Positions 2 through 31,488 of a DNA stretch of 32,000 nt are shown one piece after another. Under the pieces are notes generated by a model that was not told the origin of the DNA, did no database searches, and saw only the letters and a program-made list of their open reading frames with translations. Origin of the DNA: Pyrolobus fumarii 1A (lineage in GTDB: Archaea; Thermoproteota; Thermoprotei_A; Sulfolobales; Pyrodictiaceae). The position numbers and the translations under genes are program-made. The stretch spans positions 420,001-452,000 of the forward strand of contig NC_015931.1 of the NCBI RefSeq assembly GCF_000223395.1, read 5' to 3'. Position 1 is the stretch's first letter, and the number at the start of each line of letters is the position of its first letter.

Positions 2-958
2 TTCTGGGTTGAAAGACTACGCCCAAGCAGCCTGAGCGACTTGATGATCAATGTAGAAGCGTGGGTGAAGACCGGTGTTGCGTTAAGTATCGAAGATAGG
101 GTTGTCATAGGCGCTAGGATGCGTACAAGAAACTTGGACGGCGGCCCCGGAGCCTATACCGTCCTCTACACGCCCCCTGAGATGCGAAAGGCTGATAACA
201 GGATGTGCATAGGAGTTTATGCTGAATTATTCTGTGAGGGTGATGAAAAACCTAAGAGGATTCTAGGTGTACTGGGTGGCGACCGCGGCATCGCTGAGGT
301 GGTAACATCCAAGCCTATCCTGTACGAAAGTCTCAAAGACGAGTGGAATAAGGTGCGACAGCTGACTAATGCGAGTGTAAGAAGCATACGTTGCAGCTTT
401 TATGCGCTACTTGCCTCGCCGTTACCCCTCACTGTGAAAGAGGCAGAGGAGCTAGTAAATAATGGCAAAGTCTTAGGCAACAACATGGAACAAAGGAATG
501 CAACCCTCGCGGCTACATCATCAAGACTCGCTTCGAGACTCGGAGTTAGCAGGATAGAGTTGAGCATAGAGACACCTAGTAGATGGGAGGTTAGAAAACT
601 CCTAGAAACCATACTAGAAGGTGAAGGGGCACTCAGAGAGAAACTCGAGAAGCTGTTACAGCCGCGGCTAACGGCAAGAGGCATAGGATATGACATTGCA
701 TATAATGCCCCAAGACCCTACCATGTGATGCTCGAACCTGGAGGGATAATAGCGATTGAGGTGAAGATACAAGACACTATAGGCTCTCAAGCGGATCTCC
801 CGGCTAGGCTCCTCGAGGCCATCTACGTCGAGGGTATAGCAGATGATAGCCTCGCTAAACTCGGCTGGGGTACGGTCATACCAACAACACTACCGAGATT
901 ACATCCGCTAGCAGCAACACAATACAAACCTAGGCCTATATGTGTACCCTATGTTTGA
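2..958 (+). CDS. cmr3: Cmr3-like type III-B RAMP subunit (Cas5 family), 5'-truncated by the window edge
   Basis: The frame is open from nt 2, with no stop before the listed ATG at 41, so the gene enters from upstream. The motifs appear in the order remembered for Cmr3: VLYTPPE, GVLGGDRGIAEV (LGGE-type), RGIGYDIAYNAPRPYHVMLEPGGIIAIEV (GWD..PKP..PxGSV-type), and a C-terminal KLGWGT glycine loop. This is motif recall, not a search. Confidence 0.6.
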   Translation, partial: FWVERLRPSSLSDLMINVEAWVKTGVALSIEDRVVIGARMRTRNLDGGPGAYTVLYTPPEMRKADNRMCIGVYAELFCEGDEKPKRILGVLGGDRGIAEVVTSKPILYESLKDEWNKVRQLTNASVRSIRCSFYALLASPLPLTVKEAEELVNNGKVLGNNMEQRNATLAATSSRLASRLGVSRIELSIETPSRWEVRKLLETILEGEGALREKLEKLLQPRLTARGIGYDIAYNAPRPYHVMLEPGGIIAIEVKIQDTIGSQADLPARLLEAIYVEGIADDSLAKLGWGTVIPTTLPRLHPLAATQYKPRPICVPYV

Positions 959-5697: not shown

Positions 5698-8600
5698 TCT
5701 TCAATCCGTTCTTGGTTGTTTCTTCAAAGCTCCATATTTTGTCCTCCAAGGCGAGATACTACCGCTTTCTTTCAATTCATTCCTGGTTGTCTCTCCACCC
5801 TTAGACCTACGCCAAATGCCTTACTTTCATACTAACCAACTTTCAATTCATTCTTTGTTGTTTCGTCCTCGCGGCGCTAGTGCTACTTGTGCCTGCTCTG
5901 GCGGCTAGCATCTTTCAATTCATTCTTTGTTGTTTCCGGCAAATGCAGCACGTTGTAGTGCCATACCTATCTGCATGGCCTTTCAATTCATTCTTTGTTG
6001 TTTCCTACAGCCAGTGGCGACGATGGACGATGTGAAGACGCTCCACCTTTCAATTCATTCTTTGTTGTTTCTCGTATACCTGGCGGAGTGGCTCCGTGCT
6101 CATTATCGTGTCTAGCTTTCAATTCATTCTTTGTTGTTTCCCGCTACGCCGCACTCGTTGACCTTCCGCCCCATCCCAAGAGTATCTTTCAATTCATTCT
6201 TTGTTGTTTCCCGTGCGGGCTGGGGAGGGGCGGGCGGAGACACCGAGGCACAGCCTTTCAATTCATTCTTTGTTGTTTCGAGCCGCAGCAGAGACTCCTC
6301 CTGGCCCGGCACCGGGTCTTTCAATTCATTCTTTGTTGTTTCCACTACGACGACTACCAGCCAACAAGCTTCGACAACGACCTTTCAATTCATTCTTTGT
6401 TGTTTCCTCACAGCACGTCACCCCACTACCATGACAACCACCCTGCCACTTTCAATTCATTCTTTGTTGTTTCACATAGTGCCGCTTGAGCGCATTGACG
6501 ACCCGGAGCGGTTCCTTTCAATTCATTCTTTGTTGTTTCCCGCCCTGCTGTACGCTATCAAACAAAATCCGAACATACTGCGCCTTTCAATTCATTCTTT
6601 GTTGTTTCGTGCGCATGCTCGTGCTAGTCACCCGCGGATTGCACTACTTCCTTTCAATTCATTCTTTGTTGTTTCTTTGGTATCGGTATTCTGCTTGGTG
6701 CAATTGCTAACGCCACCAACTTTCAATTCATTCTTTGTTGTTTCCTTATGCCCTCTTTTGCCCACTTGCGGAATAGCTCTATCCACTGACTTTCAATTCA
6801 TTCTTTGTTGTTTCTACGAGGCGCCCGACTGGCACCCGGAGGGAGTCACGGTAACCGTGCTTTCAATTCATTCTTTGTTGTTTCTGGGCAGCCGCCAAAG
6901 CCCGTCTATGCCAGCGGCGGCTACCTTTCAATTCATTCTTTGTTGTTTCTAGGCCTGCTAACACCCTGGCTCATACTAGGAGCAATGGCGACGGGCTACG
7001 TCTTTCAATTCATTCTTTGTTGTTTCCTGGCCCTGCAGGTCGATCACTGGGGTTATCGTGGTGTTCTTTCAATTCATTCTTTGTTGTTTCAAAAGATTGC
7101 TAAATGGCTCGAAGAGGACTTGTCTGACGAACTTTCAATTCATTCTTTGTTGTTTCGGGTTCATAGCATGGGCGGTTGGTATAGACGCCGAGATGGCCAG
7201 GCTTTCAATTCATTCTTTGTTGTTTCTAAGGGCGAGGAGCGCGAGGTTGACATGTGGGTCGTGCTTTCAATTCATTCTTTGTTGTTTCCTCGTCGCTACC
7301 CTCGATGAGGTACGGTGGTAGCATGAGCGCTGTCTTTCAATTCATTCTTTGTTGTTTCGCTCAGGTCCTCCGGTGCGTTCTCCAGCGCGTAGTTAACCTT
7401 TCAATTCATTCTTTGTTGTTTCGGGCGGACAGTTCTTCCACTACACGGTGTTGTCGTGGCTAACGCTTTCAATTCATTCTTTGTTGTTTCTATGCCTCGC
7501 GCCTTGGCCCAAGAACCTATATCGCGTACTCGTGCTTTCAATTCATTCTTTGTTGTTTCCCAGGATGGCCGCCGCGGCGGCAAAGATGTCCGCCTCTACC
7601 AACTTTCAATTCATTCTTTGTTGTTTCTCGGCTCGGCTTCCGTTCCTAGAGCGGCGGTATCGCCTAGAACTTTCAATTCATTCTTTGTTGTTTCTATGTA
7701 ACGCCGCGTTTCAGTGGCATGACGATGAGATGGGTGCTTTCAATTCATTCTTTGTTGTTTCACGAGAGCGGCGGCACGATATGCGAGTGTGAAGCCGACG
7801 ATGTCCTTTCAATTCATTCTTTGTTGTTTCACAGGGCCTCTCTACTCGACGCCAGGAAGCTGGTAAGGGTACTTTCAATTCATTCTTTGTTGTTTCCACG
7901 TTCTCCAGCCACTTTAGGAGCCACTCTTTCTTCTCCCCTTTCAATTCATTCTTTGTTGTTTCCCATGCGGCGGCTGCCGCTTCTCCACCAGCCGTCTTCA
8001 TACTTTCAATTCATTCTTTGTTGTTTCCTCGACCTTATCGCATGGCATGCAGTGAGCATGAGGAATGTCCTTTCAATTCATTCTTTGTTGTTTCCGCATA
8101 CCCTCTATACGCGGTGCGGGGATCCGGAAATGGTGGCTTTCAATTCATTCTTTGTTGTTTCCAGGCTTGGGTCGTGTCCACGCCCGAAGTCCGGTATCTT
8201 GCCAGGCTTTCAATTCATTCTTTGTTGTTTCACGTAGCTTAGGGTCGAACATGCCAACCGCTGGCTCTGTGTGCTTTCAATTCATTCTTTGTTGTTTCGA
8301 GGCTCTGGCAGATGGCCAAGGGCAGTGCTGGCAAGAAGCGGCTTTCAATTCATTCTTTGTTGTTTCCGTCCTTCGCGGGTTTACGCGTGGGGGTGCGTGG
8401 GATGGAGGCCGCCTTTCAATTCATTCTTTGTTGTTTCACACGCGTTTTTTCAACTTGCGCGACCTCGCACATCACGATCTGCCTTTCAATTCATTCTTTG
8501 TTGTTTCTTACGCGGTAGGCCCACGCGGAGGTGGTCGCGGGTGAAGCTTTCAATTCATTCTTTGTTGTTTCTATCGCGACAAACGTGCGCAGTGATGGAC

Positions 8601-10417
8601 GAATATACCTCCTTTCAATTCATTCTTTGTTGTTTCACAGTGGAGGTGAGCAAGCCATCCGACTGGTCTAGGAACAGGGCTACTTTCAATTCATTCTTTG
8701 TTGTTTCATGGGCTGTGTCGCGAGAACTGCTACCACGCGTGTATCATGGCATTGCTTTCAATTCATTCTTTGTTGTTTCCCGTGTGTGGCAAAAGTCGAA
8801 GGCAGAGGCGGCTACAAACCAACTTTCAATTCATTCTTTGTTGTTTCCTTGATTCTCAGCGCCACGAACGACGCTCTAGTATCGTCAATGACCTTTCAAT
8901 TCATTCTTTGTTGTTTCAGGCTGAACAGCTAGCACGGGGGAGGACACGAGCCATGAACGACTTTCAATTCATTCTTTGTTGTTTCGTGACGGGGTACCTA
9001 GCCACGGTTGTCACCTCCTAGATGTTCATACTTTCAATTCATTCTTTGTTGTTTCTCGCGGTAATAGTCCCCAGCGTCCGGGTCCACTGGTATCTCGACT
9101 TTCAATTCATTCTTTGTTGTTTCACTGAGGCCAGGGAGGAGCGGGAGCAGAAGCCCAGCGAGGCTTGCTTTCAATTCATTCTTTGTTGTTTCCGCGCGAC
9201 GTTATGGTCGTTCCCGCCGCGTCCGCCTCATCTTTCAATTCATTCTTTGTTGTTTCCTCGCTTCGAGAGGATAGTGATAAGGTGCGAGCCTATGACGCTT
9301 TCAATTCATTCTTTGTTGTTTCGTTAAACTAGAAATGAAAGCGCAAGGTTGTGAAAACGGGTGCTTTCAATTCATTCTTTGTTGTTTCCCCAGAAATATC
9401 TCGAACCGGAAATATCGAGCCCCGATAGGGTCACATTCCTTTCAATTCATTCTTTGTTGTTTCCTCACCCACCCGACCAGCGACCCATCACTAGCATTGT
9501 AGAACTCCCTTTCAATTCATTCTTTGTTGTTTCGTATTTGCACCACCAGCCGCAAGGCAGTATATGCCGCTTTTTCACTTTCAATTCATTCTTTGTTGTT
9601 TCCGCCTGGAGGTCTTCTGCGAGTGCAAGGGGTGTAGAGCCACTTTCAATTCATTCTTTGTTGTTTCATGATCTCAAATCGCGTCTCTTTACCGCCGCGA
9701 TCCTCTCCAGGCTTTCAATTCATTCTTTGTTGTTTCCATCAACGCTGTATCGTTCTTCCGCGATACGCCAAACCACTTGCTTTCAATTCATTCTTTGTTG
9801 TTTCGGATGTTACAACCCCAATAGTACCCAGTGTTGCATGTTCTCTTTCAATTCATTCTTTGTTGTTTCCGCGAGTGGTGGTTCGTGAAGGCGCGTCGCA
9901 TAACCGTGCTTTCAATTCATTCTTTGTTGTTTCCGCAGTTCCTGGCCACTGCCCGCCAGGTGCTAGAGAAGCTCGACTTTCAATTCATTCTTTGTTGTTT
10001 CTTTGGCTTCTCTTCATCCTCTAGACAATCACCGAGAATCAAGTCCTTTCAATTCATTCTTTGTTGTTTCATACATGTATGGGGTGGAGGTAGGTGATGC
10101 GACCAGTCATAGGCCCTTTCAATTCATTCTTTGTTGTTTCGCGCAAATGCTCGATACGTCCGCGGGAATATCCGCCTGTAGGCCTCCAGCTTTCAATTCA
10201 TTCTTTGTTGTTTCAAGTCCGGAATCTCGCTGGAGATGCCGAGGCGCGGTTTCGACTTTCAATTCATTCTTTGTTGTTTCACGGCCGCTGGCATATCCTC
10301 GCTCAGTAGCGTAGCTCCGATCAACTTTCAATTCATTCTTTGTTGTTTCCTGAAGGTTATGCTGGTGGTGTATGATGGTGGAATGCCAGTTACTTTCAAT
10401 TCATTCTTTGTTGTTTC
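5698..10417 (-). CRISPR. CRISPR array 1: 70 repeat units, 69 spacers
   Basis: There are 68 identical 25-nt repeats, CTTTCAATTCATTCTTTGTTGTTTC on the + strand, from 5840-5864 to 10393-10417. Two degenerate units lie at 5698-5722 and 5769-5793. Spacers are 37-52 nt and all look distinct by eye. Three observations indicate minus-strand transcription: the decayed units are at the left end, a conserved leader is at the right end, and the reverse complement ends in ATTGAAAG. Confidence 0.97.
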
Positions 10418-11016: not shown

Positions 11017-11991
11017 CTACCTCGTCTCTATCCTGGTTGTCCCGAATCCTGCTGCTCGGCTGGCTCCCATGCCCATTACCGCTGCGTGGCTGAGGAGGTG
11101 CTCGGTTGTCTCGGTGTCTTCTGGCGTCGCGTCCTCGACGTAGAGCTTGGTGTAGCCTACTAGTGCGGGTAGGAGCCTGCCGCTGTGTATGTAGTAGCGG
11201 AGTCTTGTTGTTCTCCAGGTGGCTGGTGAGGGTGAGAGTGTCCTCTCGGCGGCCTCCACCATCTCGAGGGCTCTCCTGTGATCGCCCTCTGCTAGCTCCA
11301 GGGCGTTGACGTAGAGGAGGTATGAGGGTGCTGGTAGTAGCCTCTTCCAGCGGGAGCCGGGGCGCCAGGGGTTAACCGGCAGCGTGGGCGCCATGAGGGT
11401 TATCTTGACGCTGGTGGCGTCGCGTAGCCTGATTATGGGCTTGCCGCCCGGATCGTAGGTGGCCACCCTCCTGGCGTCCACGAGCTCGACGCGCAGCGTG
11501 TGCATCGAGAAGTCTATGTTGACGCCCTTATCCAGGCACGAGACCACCTCGTCTATCACATCCTCGAGGCCCGGGCCGAGCCCCACGTGGAAGGCGAGGG
11601 TGGAGCCGCTCTCGACCACTGGGTACTCGGTGCTCCTGCCGTCCCAGGAGCCGGGGTAGACCGCCTCGACCCTGCCGCCCTCGACGCGGAGGAGGGGTGA
11701 GAGCGAGAGGGGCTTGGGAAGAGTCAGCCCATCGTGGTTCAGTATGAGGGCGGCTGTGCGGGAACACGTGGCCACCAAGCCCCTCACGAGCTTACCCGTG
11801 TAGTCCGTGACGAGGAGGGGGCCGTAGCCGAGCCGGAGCCACAGCCTCACCCGCAGCTCCCAACGCTGGAATATCGTCAACCAGCCGCCGGCCCCTGGCT
11901 CCAACCACACGAGAGGCGCGTATAGACATAGAGGCGGCAAAGAACCCAGGCAAACAGTCACCAGTGCACCAGTCTCTACCGCGCTCCACAC
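11017..11991 (-). CDS. cas6: Cas6 endoribonuclease paralogue A
   Basis: The C-terminus has a glycine-rich loop, HLLSHAAVMGMGASRAAGFG (Cas6 GhGxxxxxGhG-type). It is homologous along its length to the ORF at 14107-15078, sharing LPVNPWRPGSRWKRLLP among other segments. It lies adjacent to leader 1. The first ~40 aa are doubtful, so the true start is probably internal. Confidence 0.75.
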   Translation of the reverse strand: MWSAVETGALVTVCLGSLPPLCLYAPLVWLEPGAGGWLTIFQRWELRVRLWLRLGYGPLLVTDYTGKLVRGLVATCSRTAALILNHDGLTLPKPLSLSPLLRVEGGRVEAVYPGSWDGRSTEYPVVESGSTLAFHVGLGPGLEDVIDEVVSCLDKGVNIDFSMHTLRVELVDARRVATYDPGGKPIIRLRDATSVKITLMAPTLPVNPWRPGSRWKRLLPAPSYLLYVNALELAEGDHRRALEMVEAAERTLSPSPATWRTTRLRYYIHSGRLLPALVGYTKLYVEDATPEDTETTEHLLSHAAVMGMGASRAAGFGTTRIETR

Positions 11992-14106: not shown

Positions 14107-15078
14107 CTAGCCCTCGAGCCTATCGGTGGACGGCATGGCCTCTATGCTTACCGCGCCGAAGCCAGCCGCCCTCCCGGAACCCACCCCCATGACCACAGCG
14201 TGGCTGAGGAGGTGCTCCACGGTCTCTACCTCCCCCTTGCCCACCCCCTCTGTCTCGACGTGGAGCTTCACATAGCCTATCATCGCTGGGAGCCTGCTCC
14301 CGTCGTACAGGTACCAGTATACCCTCGCGGTGTCGAGGGCCGCGTGGCTGGGGGATAGTATCCTCTCGGCGGCGATCAGCGCCCTCTCGACGAGAGCCGT
14401 GTCGGGGTCGAACATGTCGTGGGCGTTCACGGCCAGCAGGTATGAGGGTGTGGGCAGCAGCCTCTTCCAGCGGGAGCCGGGGCGCCAGGGGTTAACCGGC
14501 AGCGTGGGCGACCTAAACACGATCTTGACCGCCTCTACGCCGTCGAGCCTGACTATAGGGTCGCTGTGCGTGTCGTACTCCGCTATCATCCGGGCCTCTA
14601 CGGGCTCCACGGTGATAGCCGCTCCGCAGAACCTCACCGAGACGCCCCGCGAGAGGCACTCGAGCAAACGTGGCATCTCGTTAATCAAGTCGCCACCAGC
14701 ACCAACCTCGAAGAAGACCACCTCGCCGTCTTCGAGCACCGGGGCCCGTATCTTGTCGCGTTGCGGGCCGCCCGGGTACACCGCCTCGACCCTACCGGGG
14801 CCGGTCACGCGGAACAAGGGCGTCACGGAGAGCCTCTTGGCCACGCTCTTCTCCGAGGAGGAGAGTATGGACGCGAACCTCTCCGAGCACACCGCTAGGA
14901 GGCTCTTCACGAGCTTCCCGGTGTAGTTGCACACGCGTAGAGAGCCGAAGCCATACACCCTAACCGTGAAGGACCATCGCTCGAACCTAGCCACTCTATA
15001 GCCCCCGTGCACAGAGGAGCAGGGATTCAAGAAGGGTTTTCGAGCAGGATTTGCGGGAGACGCGCCCTGGTGCAACAC
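14107..15078 (-). CDS. cas6: Cas6 endoribonuclease paralogue B
   Basis: It has the glycine loop HLLSHAVVMGVGSGRAAGFG and the N-terminal pattern WSFTVRVYGFGSLRVCNYTGKLVKSLL. It is a paralogue of 11017-11991 and lies 29 nt downstream of an MNT gene on the same strand. Confidence 0.75.
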   Translation of the reverse strand: MLHQGASPANPARKPFLNPCSSVHGGYRVARFERWSFTVRVYGFGSLRVCNYTGKLVKSLLAVCSERFASILSSSEKSVAKRLSVTPLFRVTGPGRVEAVYPGGPQRDKIRAPVLEDGEVVFFEVGAGGDLINEMPRLLECLSRGVSVRFCGAAITVEPVEARMIAEYDTHSDPIVRLDGVEAVKIVFRSPTLPVNPWRPGSRWKRLLPTPSYLLAVNAHDMFDPDTALVERALIAAERILSPSHAALDTARVYWYLYDGSRLPAMIGYVKLHVETEGVGKGEVETVEHLLSHAVVMGVGSGRAAGFGAVSIEAMPSTDRLEG

Positions 15079-17564: not shown

Positions 17565-18822
17565 GAAACAACCAAGAATGAATTGAAAGCTTCAGCGCGT
17601 AGTAGTGGCGCTCGAGACTCCTTGGCGAGTAGGAAACAACCAAGAATGAATTGAAAGTTCATCACGGTCGGTATGAGTGGGAGCGGCGGGTTTGGGAAAC
17701 AACCAAGAATGAATTGAAAGTCCAGGTGCTCGATGGCCCATAGTGGCGCCTCTACAAGCGCGAATGGAAACAACCAAGAATGAATTGAAAGAAGGATGCG
17801 TTCGAGAACTGATATCGCGTTGTCAATTTCCCTCCGGGGAAACAACCAAGAATGAATTGAAAGGAGAGGAAGGCTGCCCCGGACCTCGTCCGCTCTATCG
17901 TCGATGGAAACAACCAAGAATGAATTGAAAGGCTATCATCGCCTCCAGTTTGGCAATGATTTGGTCAGCCTGTGAAACAACCAAGAATGAATTGAAAGAA
18001 GCTTCTTGTACGTCTCAACGTCGGCCTCAACGCGTATTACTTTCGAAACAACCAAGAATGAATTGAAAGGCGACGTACGCGATGTGTGGCGACTCGTTGA
18101 ACTGTGTGTTCTGCCGAAACAACCAAGAATGAATTGAAAGTACAAACTCGTAGTTCTCTCCGCCACGGTTTATAACGATGAGAAACAACCAAGAATGAAT
18201 TGAAAGTGCCTCGAACCTCGCGGCGGCCCTGTTATGGTTCGTGGCGGTGTGAAACAACCAAGAATGAATTGAAAGAACTATGCTCTGTAGTAGCCTGGGA
18301 AGCTCCGCGCTCATCCCGCGAAACAACCAAGAATGAATTGAAAGTAGTACACGCAATACGGCATTGCACACCCACCACGCGTACACTCTAGAAACAACCA
18401 AGAATGAATTGAAAGTAGTGTGGCACGACAGTGGCTATGACTTAGTGCCGGGCTATAGCCAGAAACAACCAAGAATGAATTGAAAGGTGACACTATACAA
18501 CATCACGGACGTCGTGAAGAGGAGCGTGAAACAACCAAGAATGAATTGAAAGTTAACCCGGCCGCGCGCCGCGACGATCTCGAGATCGCGCCGGCGGAAA
18601 CAACCAAGAATGAATTGAAAGGTGATAAAGTACGGCGCGCAATACGGCACCGGGTTCTGGATTGAAACAACCAAGAATGAATTGAAAGTGATCTCCTGTG
18701 GGTTCGGTTTCTCCACCCTGATCTCGACATCAGAAACAACCAAGAATGAATTGAAAGGTAGCTGAGACCATAGCGTAGCCGGTAGAGTTGTGCCACGGGA
18801 AACAACCAAGAATGAATTGAAG
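17565..18822 (+). CRISPR. CRISPR array 2: 19 repeat units, 18 spacers
   Basis: The repeat is GAAACAACCAAGAATGAATTGAAAG, first at 17565-17589. The terminal unit at 18799-18822 lacks one A (...ATTGAAG). Spacers are 38-47 nt. The leader is on the left, and the ATTGAAAG 3' end is typical of Cas6-processed archaeal repeats. Confidence 0.97.
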
Positions 18823-18894
18823 ATGTTTAGGGTGGCTGGCTTGGTTGGTCTGGTTGCGTCCGCGTGTTTTGCCGGGTGGGTTTCTGCGTTGCGG

Positions 18895-21516: not shown

Positions 21517-22176
21517 CTAGACTCTCGACTTGGGTACATAGGCAATAGCCTTCAGAGAGTGCGGGAACGTCTCTTTATCGTCGCATGATATCCACCAAGT
21601 GCAATGTGTCACCTTATACTTGGCCTTGCCCTTTGCAACGAACTTATACCAATCACCATCTTTGTACTTTCTTAGATCAAAGCTGGTCTCCAATACTGTT
21701 ATGTCGTACTTCTCGAAGCATGTAAGGGAGCACCAGGATTTTGTTCGGTAGCCTAGGCCTCCCGAGATGTATATGAACTTGCCTCGAGACTCGTCGTAGT
21801 CGCCGTAGATGGCTATGGCAGTGGCTGCGTACGCATTGCCCTTCGGGATGTGCACCTTTACAGTTACACCCTTCCTTATCGTTACGGTGATCGTCACTGG
21901 GTCCTCGACATAGCTGGTCTGTGCTTTGCTCTCGGCCAGCTTCTTGACGCTATAGACAGCTGGACCAGCAGCACCAAGTGTCGCAACCGCAAGGATGGAC
22001 GTGAACACGAGTATTGTCAAGACGAATCCCGGTATAATCGGGCGACGCGCGTACATGGCTTCTGTACCATTTGCGCCCTCCGGGAAGGGCGTGTATGTAT
22101 ATATCTGAACGGCTCTGTGTAGGCGAGCGCCGTTTTCAGCATGGAGCGCCCCTATACGGCGAGTATCTCTGCACAC
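21517..22176 (-). CDS. Membrane-anchored exported protein, unknown function
   Basis: The likely start is the Met at about 22056 (MYARRPIIPGFVLTILVFTSILAV), with a minus-sense ATATATACATA box about 40-50 nt upstream. It is the first gene of the operon. Confidence 0.5.
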   Translation of the reverse strand: MCRDTRRIGALHAENGARLHRAVQIYTYTPFPEGANGTEAMYARRPIIPGFVLTILVFTSILAVATLGAAGPAVYSVKKLAESKAQTSYVEDPVTITVTIRKGVTVKVHIPKGNAYAATAIAIYGDYDESRGKFIYISGGLGYRTKSWCSLTCFEKYDITVLETSFDLRKYKDGDWYKFVAKGKAKYKVTHCTWWISCDDKETFPHSLKAIAYVPKSRV

Positions 22177-22527
22177 GTGTAAAGGAGGATCGTGGCATTA
22201 TGCGTACTGTCATCCTCCGCCACGTATATGGCTGGGTCTTTGGGGCATAGCAGGGTGTGTATATCGTATAATTATCAATTATGCTATATCGTATAGCATT
22301 CTATTTGAGTGTGCGGGCTATGAGTCGAGTATTGTTTCGTACGTCTTTTCCTTGTAGGCGTTCATCGCGGGATAAGCATGTTGCAGGCTGCTGTAAACAA
22401 TGCTATACACCTTCGCGGGGCCAACCCCGAGTATAGTGTTTGTATCGTAAAGCCGCTGACGGTAGTCTAGAGCGGGTGGGATGCATGGCATCATCTCTGT
22501 CGCTAGCTGCGAGGGCGTCGCACGCCG

Positions 22528-24252
22528 TCACTGTGTGGTGTAGGGTAGCCTGGTTGTTAGTTTCTCGATTTTCACTGTTCTCTCGTCACCCTCAATTATT
22601 AGGGAGGCGTTGGAATCTTTCAATATCGTTGCTAGTATCGCGATGAGTTGAGCCGCGCCCGCTAATATGCGCAGGGCTTCTGTGATATCGCTTGTGTCGG
22701 CTTGGATCACTGTCTTTCCGGCGTTTGGTGTTAATAGTATGGCGCAGCCAGTGTCAGCCTCGCGCCAGGCGTTGAACGCTCCTTTATCGTTAGTCGCTAG
22801 TATGGTCTTTCCCCGGGCGCTTACCAGCATGTTTGCCTCGCATGTGCCGTGGCCCTCGACCCCCTGCTCTAGGAGCGCTTCGGCGGCCATGGAGGCTATG
22901 CCGGAGAGCACAGCCTTGATATCGCTTGTAGAGCGTTTAGCCGCCTCCATGTAGTTGGACAGCGCCTCTCGGTATGCGCACGCCGGGAACCGTAGCACGT
23001 TGGGCTCTCCCCTCCTCCCGCTTAGGGCCATTCTCCACGCTAGCTCGTAGATGTCGTTGTGTGCGCCGAGATAGGCTAGGTTGGTATCCCCCCACACGCG
23101 GTACCCTTTCCCGAGACTAGACTCGAGTATATCAACGAGGCTGGCGTGCTTCTTCACGAACTCCGGACAATTGGCATGCTCGCTCACCACTAGCCTCCAT
23201 AGCCCCGCGGCGACCGGCAGCTCCCGGAGCAACCCGAGCCACTTCCGGAAGCCATCGTCTTCGCAGGTGTTTCTCCCTCCATGCCCAGCGATAGGGTACG
23301 ACGCGCTGTAGAGTGTGCAAGCCGCGTCCTCGCTCTTAAAGAGCGTGTGCAGCTCCACACTGACAGTCTCCGGCTCGAAACCAAGCCCCTTCACTGTCAA
23401 CACGTGGATGCGTTGCACACCACTGCTCCTCTCACCCACCTCGATGTAGACTCTAGCCTCGTCTCTTGCTACCGAGTTCAGCAGCTGGTGCACAAGCCCC
23501 ACAGCTGTGTTGAGCGGTTGGAAGCCCCGGCCTCTCCTATACGAGAGTGACTCGAGGCGCTTGGGTACACGTATGCGCGTGGGGCTGGGGCTGGCTGCTT
23601 GACGCGATCCACTCACGATATCGAAGATGACTGGTTTTGCGAGGAGCCTTGGCACTCTCGGGTAGAAGCCCGTCTCGTCACTCACTGCCCACCAACCGAC
23701 CAGCCTATCAACGCCGTGCGACGAGGTGTACGTCAGTAACAGTTGGTGGCTACTAGCCGCCCTCACAGATATGGAGGCCGCTGTAGAGGCTATCGAGGAC
23801 ATCAGCTTAGTCCCGCCGGTGACATCGACTATAACGTCGTGCCCATTTTGCAGCTCTCGTTTCAATGTGCCCTGGAGCTCCTGGACAACCCCTCCGGGGT
23901 CACGCACAGCATGCGTCATCAGCTCGTCGATCACCACATTAGGCCCGCCCTCTATGAGCGCATCTAGCCTCCTCCTAGCATCCTCGGCGTACCTCCGCGA
24001 CACGTTAGTGGCCAGCAGCACCGCCCTATCATACCCTAGGACCTCGTAGGCAGCCGCTAATACTGATGTTATGGCGGCGGCGTTCGTGCCCACGGTGGCA
24101 TACAGGACTCGGCCCACGCGTATAGCCCCAGCCTTAACGCTACACACCCGCATATAACCATACTTAGGCTCTCCGCACAAGCGCCAAACCAGCATATACG
24201 CGTTGAGAGCTACCCGCCGCCTGGCCTCAGCACACGGGCCTGTTGTGCACAC
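22528..24252 (-). CDS. CARF-domain protein with C-terminal PIN-like nuclease domain
   Basis: CARF-like signatures are VLYATVGTNAAAI and DVIVDVTGGTKLMSSIA, at about aa 48-157. PIN-like motifs VWGDTN (D389), YREAL (E429), CEANMLVSA (E472) and ILATNDKGAF (D489) occur in canonical order. The probable start is the internal Met at nt 24153. Confidence 0.6.
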   Translation of the reverse strand: MCTTGPCAEARRRVALNAYMLVWRLCGEPKYGYMRVCSVKAGAIRVGRVLYATVGTNAAAITSVLAAAYEVLGYDRAVLLATNVSRRYAEDARRRLDALIEGGPNVVIDELMTHAVRDPGGVVQELQGTLKRELQNGHDVIVDVTGGTKLMSSIASTAASISVRAASSHQLLLTYTSSHGVDRLVGWWAVSDETGFYPRVPRLLAKPVIFDIVSGSRQAASPSPTRIRVPKRLESLSYRRGRGFQPLNTAVGLVHQLLNSVARDEARVYIEVGERSSGVQRIHVLTVKGLGFEPETVSVELHTLFKSEDAACTLYSASYPIAGHGGRNTCEDDGFRKWLGLLRELPVAAGLWRLVVSEHANCPEFVKKHASLVDILESSLGKGYRVWGDTNLAYLGAHNDIYELAWRMALSGRRGEPNVLRFPACAYREALSNYMEAAKRSTSDIKAVLSGIASMAAEALLEQGVEGHGTCEANMLVSARGKTILATNDKGAFNAWREADTGCAILLTPNAGKTVIQADTSDITEALRILAGAAQLIAILATILKDSNASLIIEGDERTVKIEKLTTRLPYTTQ

Positions 24253-24265
24253 AGGCCTGCGGGGT

Positions 24266-24706
24266 CTAGAGCTCCTCGGGCGTCGTGATGTGCTCCTCTG
24301 GGAGCTTGTGTCTACGGATGAACTCCACTAGGCTGTCGTCTATGGTTAGTAGTGTCAGGTTGTTCGCCAGGGCTATCGAGTATAGGAGGTTGTCCACCAT
24401 ATCCCGGTGTCCCATCATGTACATGCGTATGGCTTGCTCCACAGCCTCGGCCGTCATGGGGGCGTGCGACATGCTATCCCGGATAGCCTGGACGCCCTCA
24501 ACAACCCTCTGGATGTCCCCCGCCGGTCTACCCCTCAAGACCTTCACTATCTTCCAGAGGGCTTCCAGCAGGCTAATCTCACTATAGTACAGCTCGTGGC
24601 CGGCCAGCCTCGGAAGCGCCCTCATGACCCTCTGTGAGGTTTCGAAGCCCAGCACCGGTAGGAGGAAAGAAGTGTCAAGTAGTAGACGCAAGCCTCTCCT
24701 GCTCAC
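24266..24706 (-). CDS. vapC: PIN-domain toxin (VapC)
   Basis: The N-terminus reads LRLLLDTSFLLPVLG and the C-terminus reads LLTIDDSLVEF. It overlaps the upstream AbrB-type gene. Confidence 0.8.
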   Translation of the reverse strand: MSRRGLRLLLDTSFLLPVLGFETSQRVMRALPRLAGHELYYSEISLLEALWKIVKVLRGRPAGDIQRVVEGVQAIRDSMSHAPMTAEAVEQAIRMYMMGHRDMVDNLLYSIALANNLTLLTIDDSLVEFIRRHKLPEEHITTPEEL

Positions 24707-24935
24707 GGAGGCTCTCCTCCTCCACGTCCTCCGCCGGTATGTAGCCTATCCTCCTCCCATGCAGAGCGAGCCAGAGCGCGTCGCGAACCGGCTCGATGAT
24801 TATCCGGCCGTCCTCAGCCCGGATCCTAACCCGCTGCCCCTCAACCAACCCCACCGCCTCCGCAACAGCCTTGGGTATCACAACCACCCTCTTCCTCCCA
24901 ACCCGCGTCTCGACAACAACGCCCACCACAATCAC
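24675..24935 (-). CDS. vapB: AbrB/SpoVT-type antitoxin (VapB)
   Basis: RVVVIPKAVAEAVGLVEGQRVRIRAEDGRIIIEPV is a typical swapped-hairpin AbrB/MazE motif. Confidence 0.8.
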   Translation of the reverse strand: MIVVGVVVETRVGRKRVVVIPKAVAEAVGLVEGQRVRIRAEDGRIIIEPVRDALWLALHGRRIGYIPAEDVEEESLREQERLASTT

Positions 24936-25780: not shown

Positions 25781-26800
25781 TTGACACCGTGGAGGGATTG
25801 CGGGTGGAGGACCGGGCTGGGTACCTGCTTCTACAACCGGAGGGTTGAGACCGAGCGCCTTTCTAGTCTCCTGGATGGTTTCAGCCTCGTTGTTCTCGTG
25901 GGGCCGCGGAATGCTGGTAAGAGCGAGCTTGCAAGATATACGCTCCTCCGCGTGAAGCGCGTCAAGCCGATGATAGTTGATGCTAGGAGGGTGGTCGCGA
26001 GGGCCGGGCTGGGCGGGCGACTAGAGCCTCTCGGCGAGCGTGTGGTCGGCACAGTGGCGAGGTTTGTTGAGGAGAAGGCTGGGCTAGGTGCGCTACTCGA
26101 CCTGGTCTCCAGTGTCTATCGGGAACTTGCTCTCGACGAGTATGTCGTGATAGACGAGGTTCACCTGGTTGCGCGCGACACTCTCCGCGAGCTTGAGGCT
26201 CTCGCTAAGCTGCTCCGCTTCTACCCGGAGTATAAGAAGTGGAAGATGGTAGTCACTTGTAGCGAGGGCTTCCTGCTGGCGCAGGGTCTGGCCGATAGGC
26301 TGGACGGGTACGGCGCCCGTGTTCTCCTCCTCGAGCCTCTAGGCGAGGAGGATGCGCGTGCACTCTACGAGGAGTACGTGGAGAGGAGAGGGTGCAGGCT
26401 AGGCTGGAGCCTCTACTGGGGGCTTATCGGCGGACTACCCGGCTACCTCCCAGACTACTGCGCGATGAACCCGGACGAGCTCAGACGATGGGTGCACGAG
26501 AGGCTCTCTAGCCTCGTATCCGCGCTCCTGGAGGCCGCCAGGGAGGCCAGGGTAGACCCCGCAGAGGTACTCCGCGCCGCACACGAGCTGCTAGTGGAAG
26601 GGCAACAGGTGCTAACGCCGCTGCACCTGACCCTAAGCAGGGTACTCGTACACACAAACATAGCGTACCAAGCCGGGCTCCAGCTAAAACCACAGCTCAG
26701 GGTATACACCGTCGCACTAGCACTATGGGCGTCACGCGGCTACAACGAACCACCCAACCCCCAAGACGTGATCAAAGCAGCCAAAGAAGACACGGTGTGA
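25781..26800 (+). CDS. Archaeal AAA+ ATPase (Arch_ATPase-like)
   Basis: FYNRRVETERLSSLL is followed by Walker A VVLVGPRNAGKSELA. Walker B reads YVVIDEVHLV, and IGGLPGYL is comparable to TGGNPRYL in the paralogue. Confidence 0.75.
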   Translation: MTPWRDCGWRTGLGTCFYNRRVETERLSSLLDGFSLVVLVGPRNAGKSELARYTLLRVKRVKPMIVDARRVVARAGLGGRLEPLGERVVGTVARFVEEKAGLGALLDLVSSVYRELALDEYVVIDEVHLVARDTLRELEALAKLLRFYPEYKKWKMVVTCSEGFLLAQGLADRLDGYGARVLLLEPLGEEDARALYEEYVERRGCRLGWSLYWGLIGGLPGYLPDYCAMNPDELRRWVHERLSSLVSALLEAAREARVDPAEVLRAAHELLVEGQQVLTPLHLTLSRVLVHTNIAYQAGLQLKPQLRVYTVALALWASRGYNEPPNPQDVIKAAKEDTV

Positions 26801-26991: not shown

Positions 26992-27609
26992 CTACGCTCT
27001 CTGTTTACCTCCGAAGCACCTGGTGTATACCGGTTTGCGCCCCGCTTCTATCTCTTCGAGCAGCTGGTGTGCCTCCATCACTACCGTATCTGCTAGTCGG
27101 AGTATCCTCTCCCACCTTATCCTTTCAAGCGCGTCTAGAAACGCTTGTGTGTCCAATATGTTCTCCTCGCGGGCGAGAAGAAGGAGGCCCACAGTTCCGG
27201 TAACAGCTGTGTTCCTCTTAGGGAGCAGCTTCGCCGCCTTTGTCCTCGCTCTCTTATCGTCAAGTACTAGGCAGATGCGTGTGCGACCCCTCCTGGAATA
27301 GTATAGTGCAATTGCGATTGCGTGCTTCTCTCCCTCGCCTAAACCTACAGCTGACTGCTCCACCACCTCTAGGTACTCCAATTGAGCATCAACAATGTAT
27401 GCCGCATACTCGTTAGGGTTGCATTCGAAATTCGGATGTTGTATCTCTTTGTAAACGCTGCGCGGTATGACAATAGTATAACCCTTCTCTGTTAGCTTAT
27501 GCACCAGGTTAACCATGCCTAGTTTGCAGAGGGTAACTAGCGTGCTCGTATCCAGTATTATGATGCGGTTAGCCGCTCTACTCCTCGAATAGCTTATCGC
27601 TCGTGACAA
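26992..27609 (-). CDS. PIN-like protein of the COG2405/DUF3368 type
   Basis: It carries IIILDTSTLVTLCKLGMVNLV and LVLDDKRARTKAAKL...VTGTVGLLLLAREENIL, matching the remembered pattern D..aRr.A...GTlGvLl.Ak. Confidence 0.7.
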   Translation of the reverse strand: MSRAISYSRSRAANRIIILDTSTLVTLCKLGMVNLVHKLTEKGYTIVIPRSVYKEIQHPNFECNPNEYAAYIVDAQLEYLEVVEQSAVGLGEGEKHAIAIALYYSRRGRTRICLVLDDKRARTKAAKLLPKRNTAVTGTVGLLLLAREENILDTQAFLDALERIRWERILRLADTVVMEAHQLLEEIEAGRKPVYTRCFGGKQRA

Positions 27610-28219
27610 GGCCTCCTAGCTTCCTCCGCGCGATATCAACAAACTCTAAAACGTTCATGCCAGCCACCCTTGCGGCCAGAGTAACTGAGATTAAGCCGCG
27701 CTCGTATAGCTTGAGGGCTGTCTCTAGACGCAGACGTTTATCCAGGAGTATATGCTTCTTCTCCGACTCCTCATAGCCACCATACACGCTATATACGAAG
27801 GCTAGTAGCTCCCTATCGTCCAGCTCATTGAATATCTCGAGAGTCTCCCTTAGCAAGGATGCGAGGTTGCCCCGCTTTTCTACAGCTTGCCACGCCCTCT
27901 CCCCCTCGTTAATGTCACGCAGCCTCACACCCTCCCTGCTGCTCTCCGTTACACCCTTCTTCTCCAACATCTCCAGCTCGTGCTCCACATCCTCACTCCA
28001 CGCGCCAAAACGGTATGGTATGAACTCTACATCTTGTACAGCTCGCGGCGCGTGACTCGAGACTATGTAGAGGAGTTTCATGAGACGCAACCTTGAGAGT
28101 TTGCCACCAGCGGTGTACAACGCCGCAAGTATGAGGTCACGTAGCGTGACCCTCTCGCCAGATCCACGTGCAACACGGCGAAGAGCGTCTCTGCTCAGCC
28201 TTGCCACGCTACTCGCCAA
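27578..28219 (-). CDS. UPF0175-type antitoxin domain fused to an N-terminal Panacea/DUF4065-like domain
   Basis: The C-terminal ALKLYERGLISVTLAARVAGMNVLEFVDIARRK is UPF0175-like. The N-terminal LRLMKLLYIVSS...FIPYRFGAWSEDVEHELEML resembles the SocA/Panacea pattern (KLLY...W.yGP). It overlaps the PIN gene by 32 nt. Confidence 0.55.
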   Translation of the reverse strand: MASSVARLSRDALRRVARGSGERVTLRDLILAALYTAGGKLSRLRLMKLLYIVSSHAPRAVQDVEFIPYRFGAWSEDVEHELEMLEKKGVTESSREGVRLRDINEGERAWQAVEKRGNLASLLRETLEIFNELDDRELLAFVYSVYGGYEESEKKHILLDKRLRLETALKLYERGLISVTLAARVAGMNVLEFVDIARRKLGGLVTSDKLFEE

Positions 28220-31002: not shown

Positions 31003-31488
31003 CTAGAGTGTGATTGGTTTTGGTGGTGTTCTTGTCGTCTTGTCGCATAGGGTCTCCGCCCTGTTTATCCTCTGCTGCTCTTCGTGCGGGATTGGCGTGT
31101 ATATCGTCGTGTATCCTCTCCTAACCGAGTACATGGCTGCTATTATGGAGGCTAGTTTGCGGCCCCCGGTGACGTCTATTATGGCGTGTTTGGCGCCTCT
31201 CGTTGCCTCCTCTAGCTTCTCGAGGAGCTCGTTTATGCCCTCCTCGTCCGTGACGTCGTCAACCCTCAGCGCGTGCACGTGTATCGTGGTGCTTGGCGCT
31301 AGTGGTGGTTTGTCCGTGCCGGGGCATGGGCAGGTCCTGGCTATCTCTATCGCCTCGTGTACTGGTGCCCGCCTAGTCGCCACGATGTGAACCTCTGTGG
31401 GTGTAGCTGCGTTGGCACGTAGCGCGCAGAGCACCGTGTGGAGGACTCCCGGAGACATCCCGAGTAGCACGACGAGCCTTGTGCCCAC
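31003..31488 (-). CDS. Minimal stand-alone CARF-domain protein (Cas_NE0113-like)
   Basis: The N-terminus reads LVVLLGMSPGVLHTVLCAL and IIDVTGGRKLASIIAAMYS follows. Both are signatures of the NE0113-type CARF Rossmann fold. At 161 aa there is no room for an effector domain. Confidence 0.6.
   Translation of the reverse strand: MGTRLVVLLGMSPGVLHTVLCALRANAATPTEVHIVATRRAPVHEAIEIARTCPCPGTDKPPLAPSTTIHVHALRVDDVTDEEGINELLEKLEEATRGAKHAIIDVTGGRKLASIIAAMYSVRRGYTTIYTPIPHEEQQRINRAETLCDKTTRTPPKPITL

Follow-up and report, generated by a model that had tools for sequence, protein, structure and literature searches.

What does the protein Pyrfu_0473 of the archaeon Pyrolobus fumarii 1A do? Its NCBI record (AEM38344.1, called at 550 aa) says only "hypothetical protein Pyrfu_0473." The gene lies on the reverse strand of the 32,000-nt stretch of contig NC_015931.1 analyzed here (positions 420,001 to 452,000; hereafter the window, whose own numbering is used for all coordinates). 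A first-pass annotation, made from the letters alone, had read it as a CARF sensor joined to a PIN-like nuclease through an unrecognized middle domain, and had proposed an effector switched on by cyclic oligoadenylate (cOA). We consider the combination of a CARF domain with a PIN-like domain very probable. A ribonuclease gated by cOA, probably by cyclic tetra-adenylate (cA4), is the best explanation of the protein, and one that we favor with some reserve. Pyrfu_0473 is a divergent member of a kind of protein already defined computationally and not a new kind of system, so that its novelty is less than the first-pass annotation implied.

The family assignment comes from the PADLOC profile PDLC01984 (CARF_m3--CARF_PIN). 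Residues 12–453 of Pyrfu_0473 align to positions 13–365 of the 433 in this profile (expect value E 2.2e-8). Relatives match it as well: P0004 over residues 5–503 (positions 5–421, E 2.5e-16), P0005 (E 3.8e-15), and P0008, whose match is confined to the middle and PIN parts (E 4.8e-10). CARF_m3 corresponds to Crf10/Crf11 in the 2025 CRISPR-Cas classification, where these CARF+PIN proteins are listed as sensor and effector (PMC12669027 supplement); the PIN domain is there still "a predicted RNase," and Crf10/11 are not marked as ring nucleases (PMC12669027). Pyrfu_0473 shares with CARF_m3 the order CARF, middle domain, PIN, and tail, a near-full-length profile match, an archaeal host, and loci that tend toward CRISPR neighborhoods. 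The restriction of CARF_m3 to archaea also holds here, as the source is P. fumarii 1A (to a protein of which a second window gene is also 100% identical), one relative comes from an uncultured Desulfurococcales metagenome-assembled genome (MAG), and no member was found on viral contigs. However, the similarity is remote (32–58 bits on the 433-position profile), the interval between CARF and PIN is ~90 residues longer in Pyrfu_0473 than in the profile, and an exhaustive profile search retrieved only members of this lineage, 11 in number, and no canonical CARF_m3 members. Given the low profile scores, these comparisons support placing Pyrfu_0473 on what is probably a distant branch of CARF_m3. 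No NCBIfam model represents the family.

Other CARF fusions were considered and rejected. CARF_m1 (Crf6), also CARF+PIN and usually not CRISPR-linked, is matched through PDLC01973 in its CARF part alone, positions 3–115 of 465 (E 8e-6). Profiles for CARF+HEPN proteins of the Csm6/Csx1 type likewise match the CARF part only (for example, positions 3–111 of 357), with no Pfam HEPN match, and those for PD-(D/E)xK effectors cover the same part. Pyrfu_0473 resembles Csm6/Csx1 (HEPN), Can1/Can2/Card1 (PD-D/ExK), and Cami1 (RelE) in fusing a cOA-sensing type of CARF domain to a nuclease, and the CARF domains superpose, but its effector domain is PIN-like and not HEPN, PD-(D/E)xK, or RelE. Shah et al. 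in 2018 grouped CARF+PIN proteins as cluster 104, which includes Msed_1167 and ST0035 of S. tokodaii (PMC6546367); both are labeled CARF+PIN, like Pyrfu_0473, and are accessory genes found with type III systems in Crenarchaeota. The first-pass annotation had also held that CARF-PIN proteins are known from computational censuses only. The 2025 classification agrees, the only test that we found is that of ST0035, and our literature search found no biochemical characterization of this archaeal CARF+PIN family.

The extent of the gene needs correcting before its domains can be placed. An open reading frame (ORF) of 574 aa is indeed present at 22528..24252 (reverse strand), and its translation contains every motif quoted from it earlier: the CARF motifs VLYATVGTNAAAI and DVIVDVTGGTKLMSSIA, and the PIN motifs GDTN, YREAL, CEANMLVSA, and ILATNDKGAF, whose codons were checked. 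Its start, however, is over-extended by 45 codons that no relative has. The three closest relatives (P0001, P0002, and P0003) all begin at residue 46 of the 574-aa ORF, and a GTG at 24117–24115 aligns exactly with the ATG of P0002 and P0003, and with that at loci L001 and L002. On this basis the true gene is most likely 22528..24117 (reverse strand), 529 aa plus stop, read from GTG 24117; P0001 is an identical 529-aa database protein. A TATA-like TTATAT box at 24152–24157, ~37 nt upstream of this GTG and inside the supposed N-terminal extension, may be a promoter element, and the extension itself (24118..24252, reverse strand), missing from the relatives, is probably noncoding. Residue numbers below refer to the 529-aa form; adding 45 gives the earlier 574-aa numbering. 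The CARF_m3--CARF_PIN match was seen only with the 529-aa form and is not among the 25 matches listed for the 574-aa ORF. An over-long ORF call can thus mask the informative family match. A pseudogene was considered and rejected: the reading frame is unbroken and keeps its motifs, and the ratio of nonsynonymous to synonymous divergence (dN/dS) is 0.23.

The N-terminal CARF domain occupies residues 1–135 (23713..24117, reverse strand), with motif I at G10-T11-N12 and motif II at G102-T103-K104. PADLOC, a profile search of Protein Data Bank (PDB) sequences, and Foldseek all agree on it, which bears out the earlier claim. The best PADLOC match is to the Csx1/Csm6 CARF (E 4e-9), and more than 25 other CARF profiles also match; the Pfam CARF families match the protein only below the gathering score. 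Run against PDB sequences, the family profile scores best with two ring nucleases that act on cA4, Sis0455 and Sso2081 (E 0.005–0.01), and also finds Csm6 and Card1; a profile of the second subfamily retrieved Crn1 only. Foldseek matches the CARF domain of the predicted structure to those of Cad1, Can2, Csm6, Cam1, and Csa3 (probability 1.00), many of them cOA-bound. In the alignment to Sso2081, with the roles of its motif residues taken from PMC10018336, G10-T11-N12 pairs with G9-T10-S11 and G102-T103-K104 with G104-R105-K106. Nine of the ten full-length family members keep G10-T11-N12 and D98-x-T-G-G-T-K104. The pocket-lining motifs I and II, with the motif II lysine, are thus conserved as candidate ligand residues. 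The Crn1 ring nucleases (Sso2081, Sis0455) hold the nearest CARF domains by sequence, with GT(S/N) and GG(R/T)K motifs in common, but they are stand-alone proteins of ~180 aa without a PIN domain. Of the Crn1 signature, Gly-Thr-Ser in motif I with Arg-Lys in motif II, Pyrfu_0473 has the lysine and substitutes N12 and T103 for the serine and arginine.

The PIN-like domain spans residues 336–475 (22693..23112, reverse strand), delimited from Pfam and PDB matches of relatives and consensus sequences, from conservation, and from the AlphaFold order of strands and helices. Its four acidic residues, all encoded on the reverse strand, are D344 (23086–23088), E384 (22966–22968), E427 (22837–22839), and D444 (22786–22788), the D389, E429, E472, and D489 of the 574-aa numbering. 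They follow the PIN order D-T-N ... E ... E ... T-x-D (D344-T-N, E384, E427, T442-x-D444) at spacings of 40, 43, and 17. Such spacing, with D-T-N and T-x-D contexts, is typical of VapC-type PIN domains. All four are invariant across the four closest sequences. In the 12-sequence family alignment D444 never varies and at least 90% of the rows have D344, while 10 of 11 rows have an acidic residue at E384 and at E/D427, the sole exception at both being the degenerate paralog P0007. G351, H353, N354, C380, C426, and T442 each reach the same 90% level of conservation, and T345, N346, and T442 together with all four acidic residues are kept in Pyrfu_0473 and in 10 of its 11 relatives.

Profile searches with relatives, consensus sequences, and the family profile point the same way. 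P0009 scores 23.3 bits against Pfam PF01850 (cut-off 23.6) over positions 1–116 of 120 and also matches PIN_12, and the consensus of a hidden Markov model (HMM) built from its subfamily reaches 23.9 bits, above the cut-off. A family-wide consensus of the PIN region matches PIN_12 (E 4e-5) and PF01850 over the full profile (E 1e-3). Other members match PIN, PIN_12, Fcf1, Mut7-C, and DUF5615, all weakly, and PIN families are the only consistent Pfam matches for the C-terminal domain. Against PDB sequences the PIN-region profile has the PIN domain 1o4w as its top match (E 0.001), and also retrieves 3ix7, a PIN protein, and 7e8k, an RNase P of PIN type. Each of the three aligns on the third and fourth acidic motifs ("CD...ilvTxD"); the other PDB matches are noise, mostly prion proteins. 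The AlphaFold order of strands and helices across residues 340–464 is compatible with a PIN fold, and the four acidic residues in the model would lie at strand ends or helix starts, consistent with that fold. Of the earlier PIN claim, then, the acidic order stands, and Pfam PIN matches are found for relatives and consensus, not for the window protein. Near these positions, C380 stands four residues before E384 and C426 directly before E427 (22966–22980 and 22837–22842), and a G351-x-H353-N354 motif follows the first aspartate; these could mean a disulfide or an additional metal ligand.

Between the two domains lies a middle domain of residues 136–335 (23113..23712, reverse strand), delimited by the family alignment and inside the aligned span of the CARF_m3--CARF_PIN profile. 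Its invariant residues in the family alignment are W142-W143, Y152-P153, P156-R157, P185, and N214. AlphaFold models it at high confidence except for residues 278–282, and neither a Pfam search nor a search of PDB sequences with its profile gave a match. The first-pass annotation had called this segment unrecognized. That holds for the fold, to which we can put no name, but the domain is no orphan: it belongs to a known family architecture, because the PADLOC profile spans CARF, middle, and PIN, and the whole protein superposes on a known structure, as described next. After the PIN domain a tail of residues 476–529 (22531..22692, reverse strand) forms a long helix and then three short strands with an EGDxR motif; in the helix A486 and Q490 are invariant and L495 is nearly so.

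The structure prediction and Foldseek comparison that the earlier work had suggested gave a confident model. With the 12-sequence alignment AlphaFold reached a mean per-residue confidence (pLDDT) of 89.4 and a predicted template modeling score (pTM) of 0.92; with only the three closest sequences pLDDT was 34 and the model unusable. The top four Foldseek matches in the PDB are all SiRe_0806 of S. islandicus, in entries 9JXW (apo) and 9JXX (with cA4), at E 7e-8 to 2e-7. The template modeling (TM) score, normalized to the ~410-residue target, is 0.52–0.57, which indicates superposition beyond the CARF domain alone, and SiRe_0806 is the only whole-length PDB match of the model. The multidomain effectors Cad1, Can2, Csm6, and Can1 reach TM scores of only 0.14–0.31. 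Small CARF-only proteins that score ~0.5 do so on the CARF domain alone, and the matches to Sis0455, Cam1, Csa3, and Cdn1 span ~120–200 columns of the CARF part only. SiRe_0806 is crenarchaeal like Pyrfu_0473, was crystallized with cA4 (entries released 2025), and superposes on the whole model, but identity is 10–11%, the root-mean-square deviation is 7.6–9 Å, it is ~110 residues shorter, and our HMMER profiles miss it. A literature search for SiRe_0806 found no paper. Among viral structures (BFVD), Foldseek returned nothing at E ≤ 0.001.

The lineage is very rare. A word-indexed search of 5.8 billion proteins returned only P0001, P0002 (61% identical), and P0003 (60%), and a repeat with the 12-sequence alignment found the same three. 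When a profile of the non-CARF part (residues 131–529) was run exhaustively with HMMER against 1.84 billion cluster representatives, it matched 11 proteins at E up to 1e-3, all with the same three-part architecture or fragments of it. Scans of metagenome and viral contigs gave no full-length relative, and a genome scan found only L002 again. One member, P0007 (locus L012, 10001–11491), comes from the same MAG as L002 and is a degenerate paralog in which the CARF motifs (GLD, DTGDTYG) are lost. In its PIN domain E384 has become R and E427 has become L, changes that go together with the loss of the CARF motifs. P0007 sits in a housekeeping neighborhood and adjoins a metallo-beta-lactamase-fold gene with a faint match to Anti-Pycsar Apyc1.

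In the mechanism that we infer, the protein, probably a homodimer, would bind cyclic oligoadenylate through its CARF domain. The most likely ligand is cA4, which a type III Cas10 complex would make on detecting foreign RNA. The signal would then pass allosterically through the conserved middle domain, with its WW...YPxxPR motif, to the C-terminal PIN domain, where D344, E384, E427, and D444 would hold a divalent metal and cut RNA. RNA would presumably then be degraded collaterally, and the infected cell would stop growing. A type III, cOA-signaling setting is supported as the most plausible context; type III or CARF genes lie nearby at 4 of the 10 family loci. Besides the window itself, with its two CRISPR arrays, two cas6 genes, and Cmr3-like gene, these are L001 and L002, where the CARF-PIN gene lies 1.7–5.5 kb from RAMP genes, and L006, where it begins 21 bp after a Cas_APE2256 CARF gene, in an apparent operon, and near csx1. 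The first-pass annotation had relied instead on a cmr3 gene at the left edge of the window. There is a Cmr3-like gene at 41..958 (forward strand), a possible type III subunit matched by PADLOC over the C-terminal part of the profile only (E 1.3e-5) and by nothing in Pfam. Support for a cmr3 gene at this edge is weak, and the ~21.5 kb that separate it from the CARF-PIN gene hold both CRISPR arrays and both cas6 genes.

Several observations weigh against a cOA-gated RNase. The 32-kb window has no Cas10, and 6 of the 10 family loci have no CRISPR gene, on contigs that are 2.5–15 kb long and mostly short. ST0035, the sole tested CARF-PIN protein that we found, cross-linked cA4 weakly and showed no induced RNase activity (PMC6546367). 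In the CARF domain, R105 of Sso2081, the residue most important for cA4 binding, is a threonine (T103) here, and S11 is an asparagine (N12). The window protein has no Pfam PIN match at E up to 10, and hhalign comparisons of its PIN region with two VapC alignments were nonsignificant, at probabilities of 1%–3% and with single motifs aligned. One of these alignments was built from the PIN genes of the window and loci, the other from 13 relatives of a Pyrfu PIN protein at 2038–2472 together with the window VapC; both profiles are narrow, and we treat the negative result as uninformative.

Some of these points could be read as signs of a CARF-PIN nuclease working outside type III signaling, which would sense another nucleotide or an RNA-derived ligand, as the CARF domain of RtcR does, and serve as a stand-alone stress or toxin module. 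At the six unlinked loci the only neighbors on the contig are housekeeping genes, ST0035 responded poorly to cA4, and the gene in the window sits among many toxin-antitoxin modules. Set against this, the four linked loci adjoin type III or CARF genes, the closest structure was crystallized with cA4, and CARF motifs I and II are kept, so we judge this explanation unlikely. Much the same doubt attaches to a role as a self-limiting effector or ring nuclease, in which the CARF domain would degrade cA4 and mainly or additionally switch the signal off. The best PDB sequence matches of the family profile are indeed ring nucleases, three members weakly match the NCBIfam model cas_Crn1, and K104 (K106 of Sso2081) and the Gly-Thr of motif I are conserved; but 8 of 10 members have Asn in place of S11, which matters for catalysis in Sso2081, Thr replaces R105, the 2025 classification lists Crf10/11 as sensor and effector, and a conserved PIN active site favors an effector role. 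Least probable, and in our view very improbable, is a C-terminal domain that is dead or not PIN and serves in binding or scaffolding, which would make the protein a sensor or regulator and no nuclease. Such a domain would fit the lack of a significant Pfam PIN match in the window protein, the negative hhalign results, and the loss in P0007 of two acidic residues along with the CARF motifs. It fits poorly with the retention of the four acidic residues and of T345, N346, and T442 in the window protein and 10 of 11 relatives, with PIN families as the only consistent matches, and with the match to the PADLOC CARF_PIN profile.

The cOA-gated RNase could also be given a more specific form, which we put forward as a long shot. 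The lineage, one of hyperthermophilic Crenarchaeota known from Pyrolobus and Desulfurococcales MAGs, might be a mechanistically distinct cA4-gated PIN RNase. Its gate would be formed by the C-terminal helix-hairpin together with the enlarged middle domain and its WW...YPxxPR motif, the family-specific GxHN motif and the cysteines C380 and C426 beside the active site would add redox or metal control, and deeply diverged alleles would persist in genomes that are otherwise nearly identical because viruses target the protein with inhibitors.

Compared with L001 and L002 over 21555–24300 of the window, the CARF-PIN gene is a deeply diverged allele. Most 150-bp windows of DNA between 24300 and 29100 are 96%–100% identical to L001, and a few 88%–95%, yet identity drops abruptly to 52%–78% over the spacer 5' of the CARF-PIN gene and the gene itself. 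Against L002 both flanks are 88%–91% identical and the CARF-PIN gene 68%. The encoded CARF-PIN proteins of the window and of L001 and L002 are about 60%–62% identical; the middle domain has diverged most (53%–55% amino-acid identity) and CARF least (70%–73%). By the Nei-Gojobori method, synonymous divergence (dS) is 1.2–1.4 in the CARF-PIN gene, with dN/dS 0.23–0.25, compared to dS 0.04–0.45 and dN/dS 0.22–0.29 in flanking genes. These ratios indicate purifying selection. Rapid change under positive selection was considered as an explanation of the 60% identity and rejected, as dS too is 6–30 times that of the flanks. High dS within near-identical flanks, at a dN/dS like theirs, points instead to an old allele put into a young background by recombination, that is, to allele replacement at a defense locus. 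The pattern would be one more example of a defense gene evolving by exchange and not by point mutation.

The neighborhood is rich in genes of related kinds. Directly upstream lies a vapBC-like pair at 24266..24935 (reverse strand), probably independent of the CARF-PIN gene. It consists of a VapC-like PIN toxin (24266–24706; Pfam PIN, E 1.8e-10) and a MazE/AbrB-type antitoxin (24675–24935; Pfam MazE_antitoxin, E 9e-13). In the window and in L001 (9183–9843; VapC 96% identical) the pair lies between the CARF-PIN gene and an ATPase gene. No vapBC gene was called in L002, where a remnant of vapC, its 3' end, can be made out at 2560–2610 upstream of the CARF-PIN gene, which suggests decay or deletion of the cassette. 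The ATPase itself, a divergently transcribed archaeal AAA protein of 339 aa (25781..26800, forward strand; Pfam AAA_14 and ATPase_2), is a neighbor common to the three closest loci, with an identity of 97% to its counterpart in L001 and 90% to that in L002. Beyond it a candidate defense gene pair at 26992–28219 (reverse strand; PADLOC PDC-S70, PIN_4/DUF3368-like, and PDC-M19A/UPF0175) resembles a toxin-antitoxin system and has ~99% DNA identity in L001. Downstream of the CARF-PIN gene, a 219-aa ORF (21517–22176, reverse strand) has an N-terminal hydrophobic segment, a lower GC content (0.52), and no family match. The ~1 kb that holds it (21555–22530) is without counterpart in L002 and is possibly an insertion adjoining the variable gene. 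Several HEPN/nucleotidyltransferase, PIN, and UPF0175 toxin-antitoxin-like genes are scattered across the window, and scans for Rfam families, tRNAs, and tandem repeats gave nothing relevant to the CARF-PIN gene.

The CRISPR elements lie in the left and middle parts of the window. Array 1 (5769..10417, reverse strand) has 69 repeats of 25 nt, with the crRNA-strand repeat GAAACAACAAAGAATGAATTGAAAG; array 2 (17565..18823, forward strand) has 19 repeats of a one-mismatch variant in the opposite orientation. The arrays are mutually inverted and flank the two cas6 genes, at 11017–11991 and 14107–15078 (both reverse strand; PADLOC Cas6, E 1e-25; Pfam CRISPR_Cas6). A degenerate terminal repeat marks the outer end of each array, so that both leaders face the cas6 region. 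Near the right edge a gene at 31003–31488 (reverse strand) encodes a stand-alone CARF protein of 161 aa (PADLOC CARF_m13, E 1e-44; assigned to the Crf5 group by the 2025 classification), which may be a second cOA sensor in the island or possibly a ring nuclease.

CARF+PIN proteins (Crf6, Crf10, and Crf11) belong to those classes of type III signaling effectors for which activity is so far a prediction. P. fumarii grows at about 106 °C. The extreme host, the confident model, and the clearly conserved candidate catalytic and ligand residues make Pyrfu_0473 a reasonable choice for characterizing the class biochemically for the first time and for studying cOA signaling at extreme temperature. For the annotation of the organism, the gain would be that a "hypothetical protein" becomes a probable CRISPR ancillary gene.

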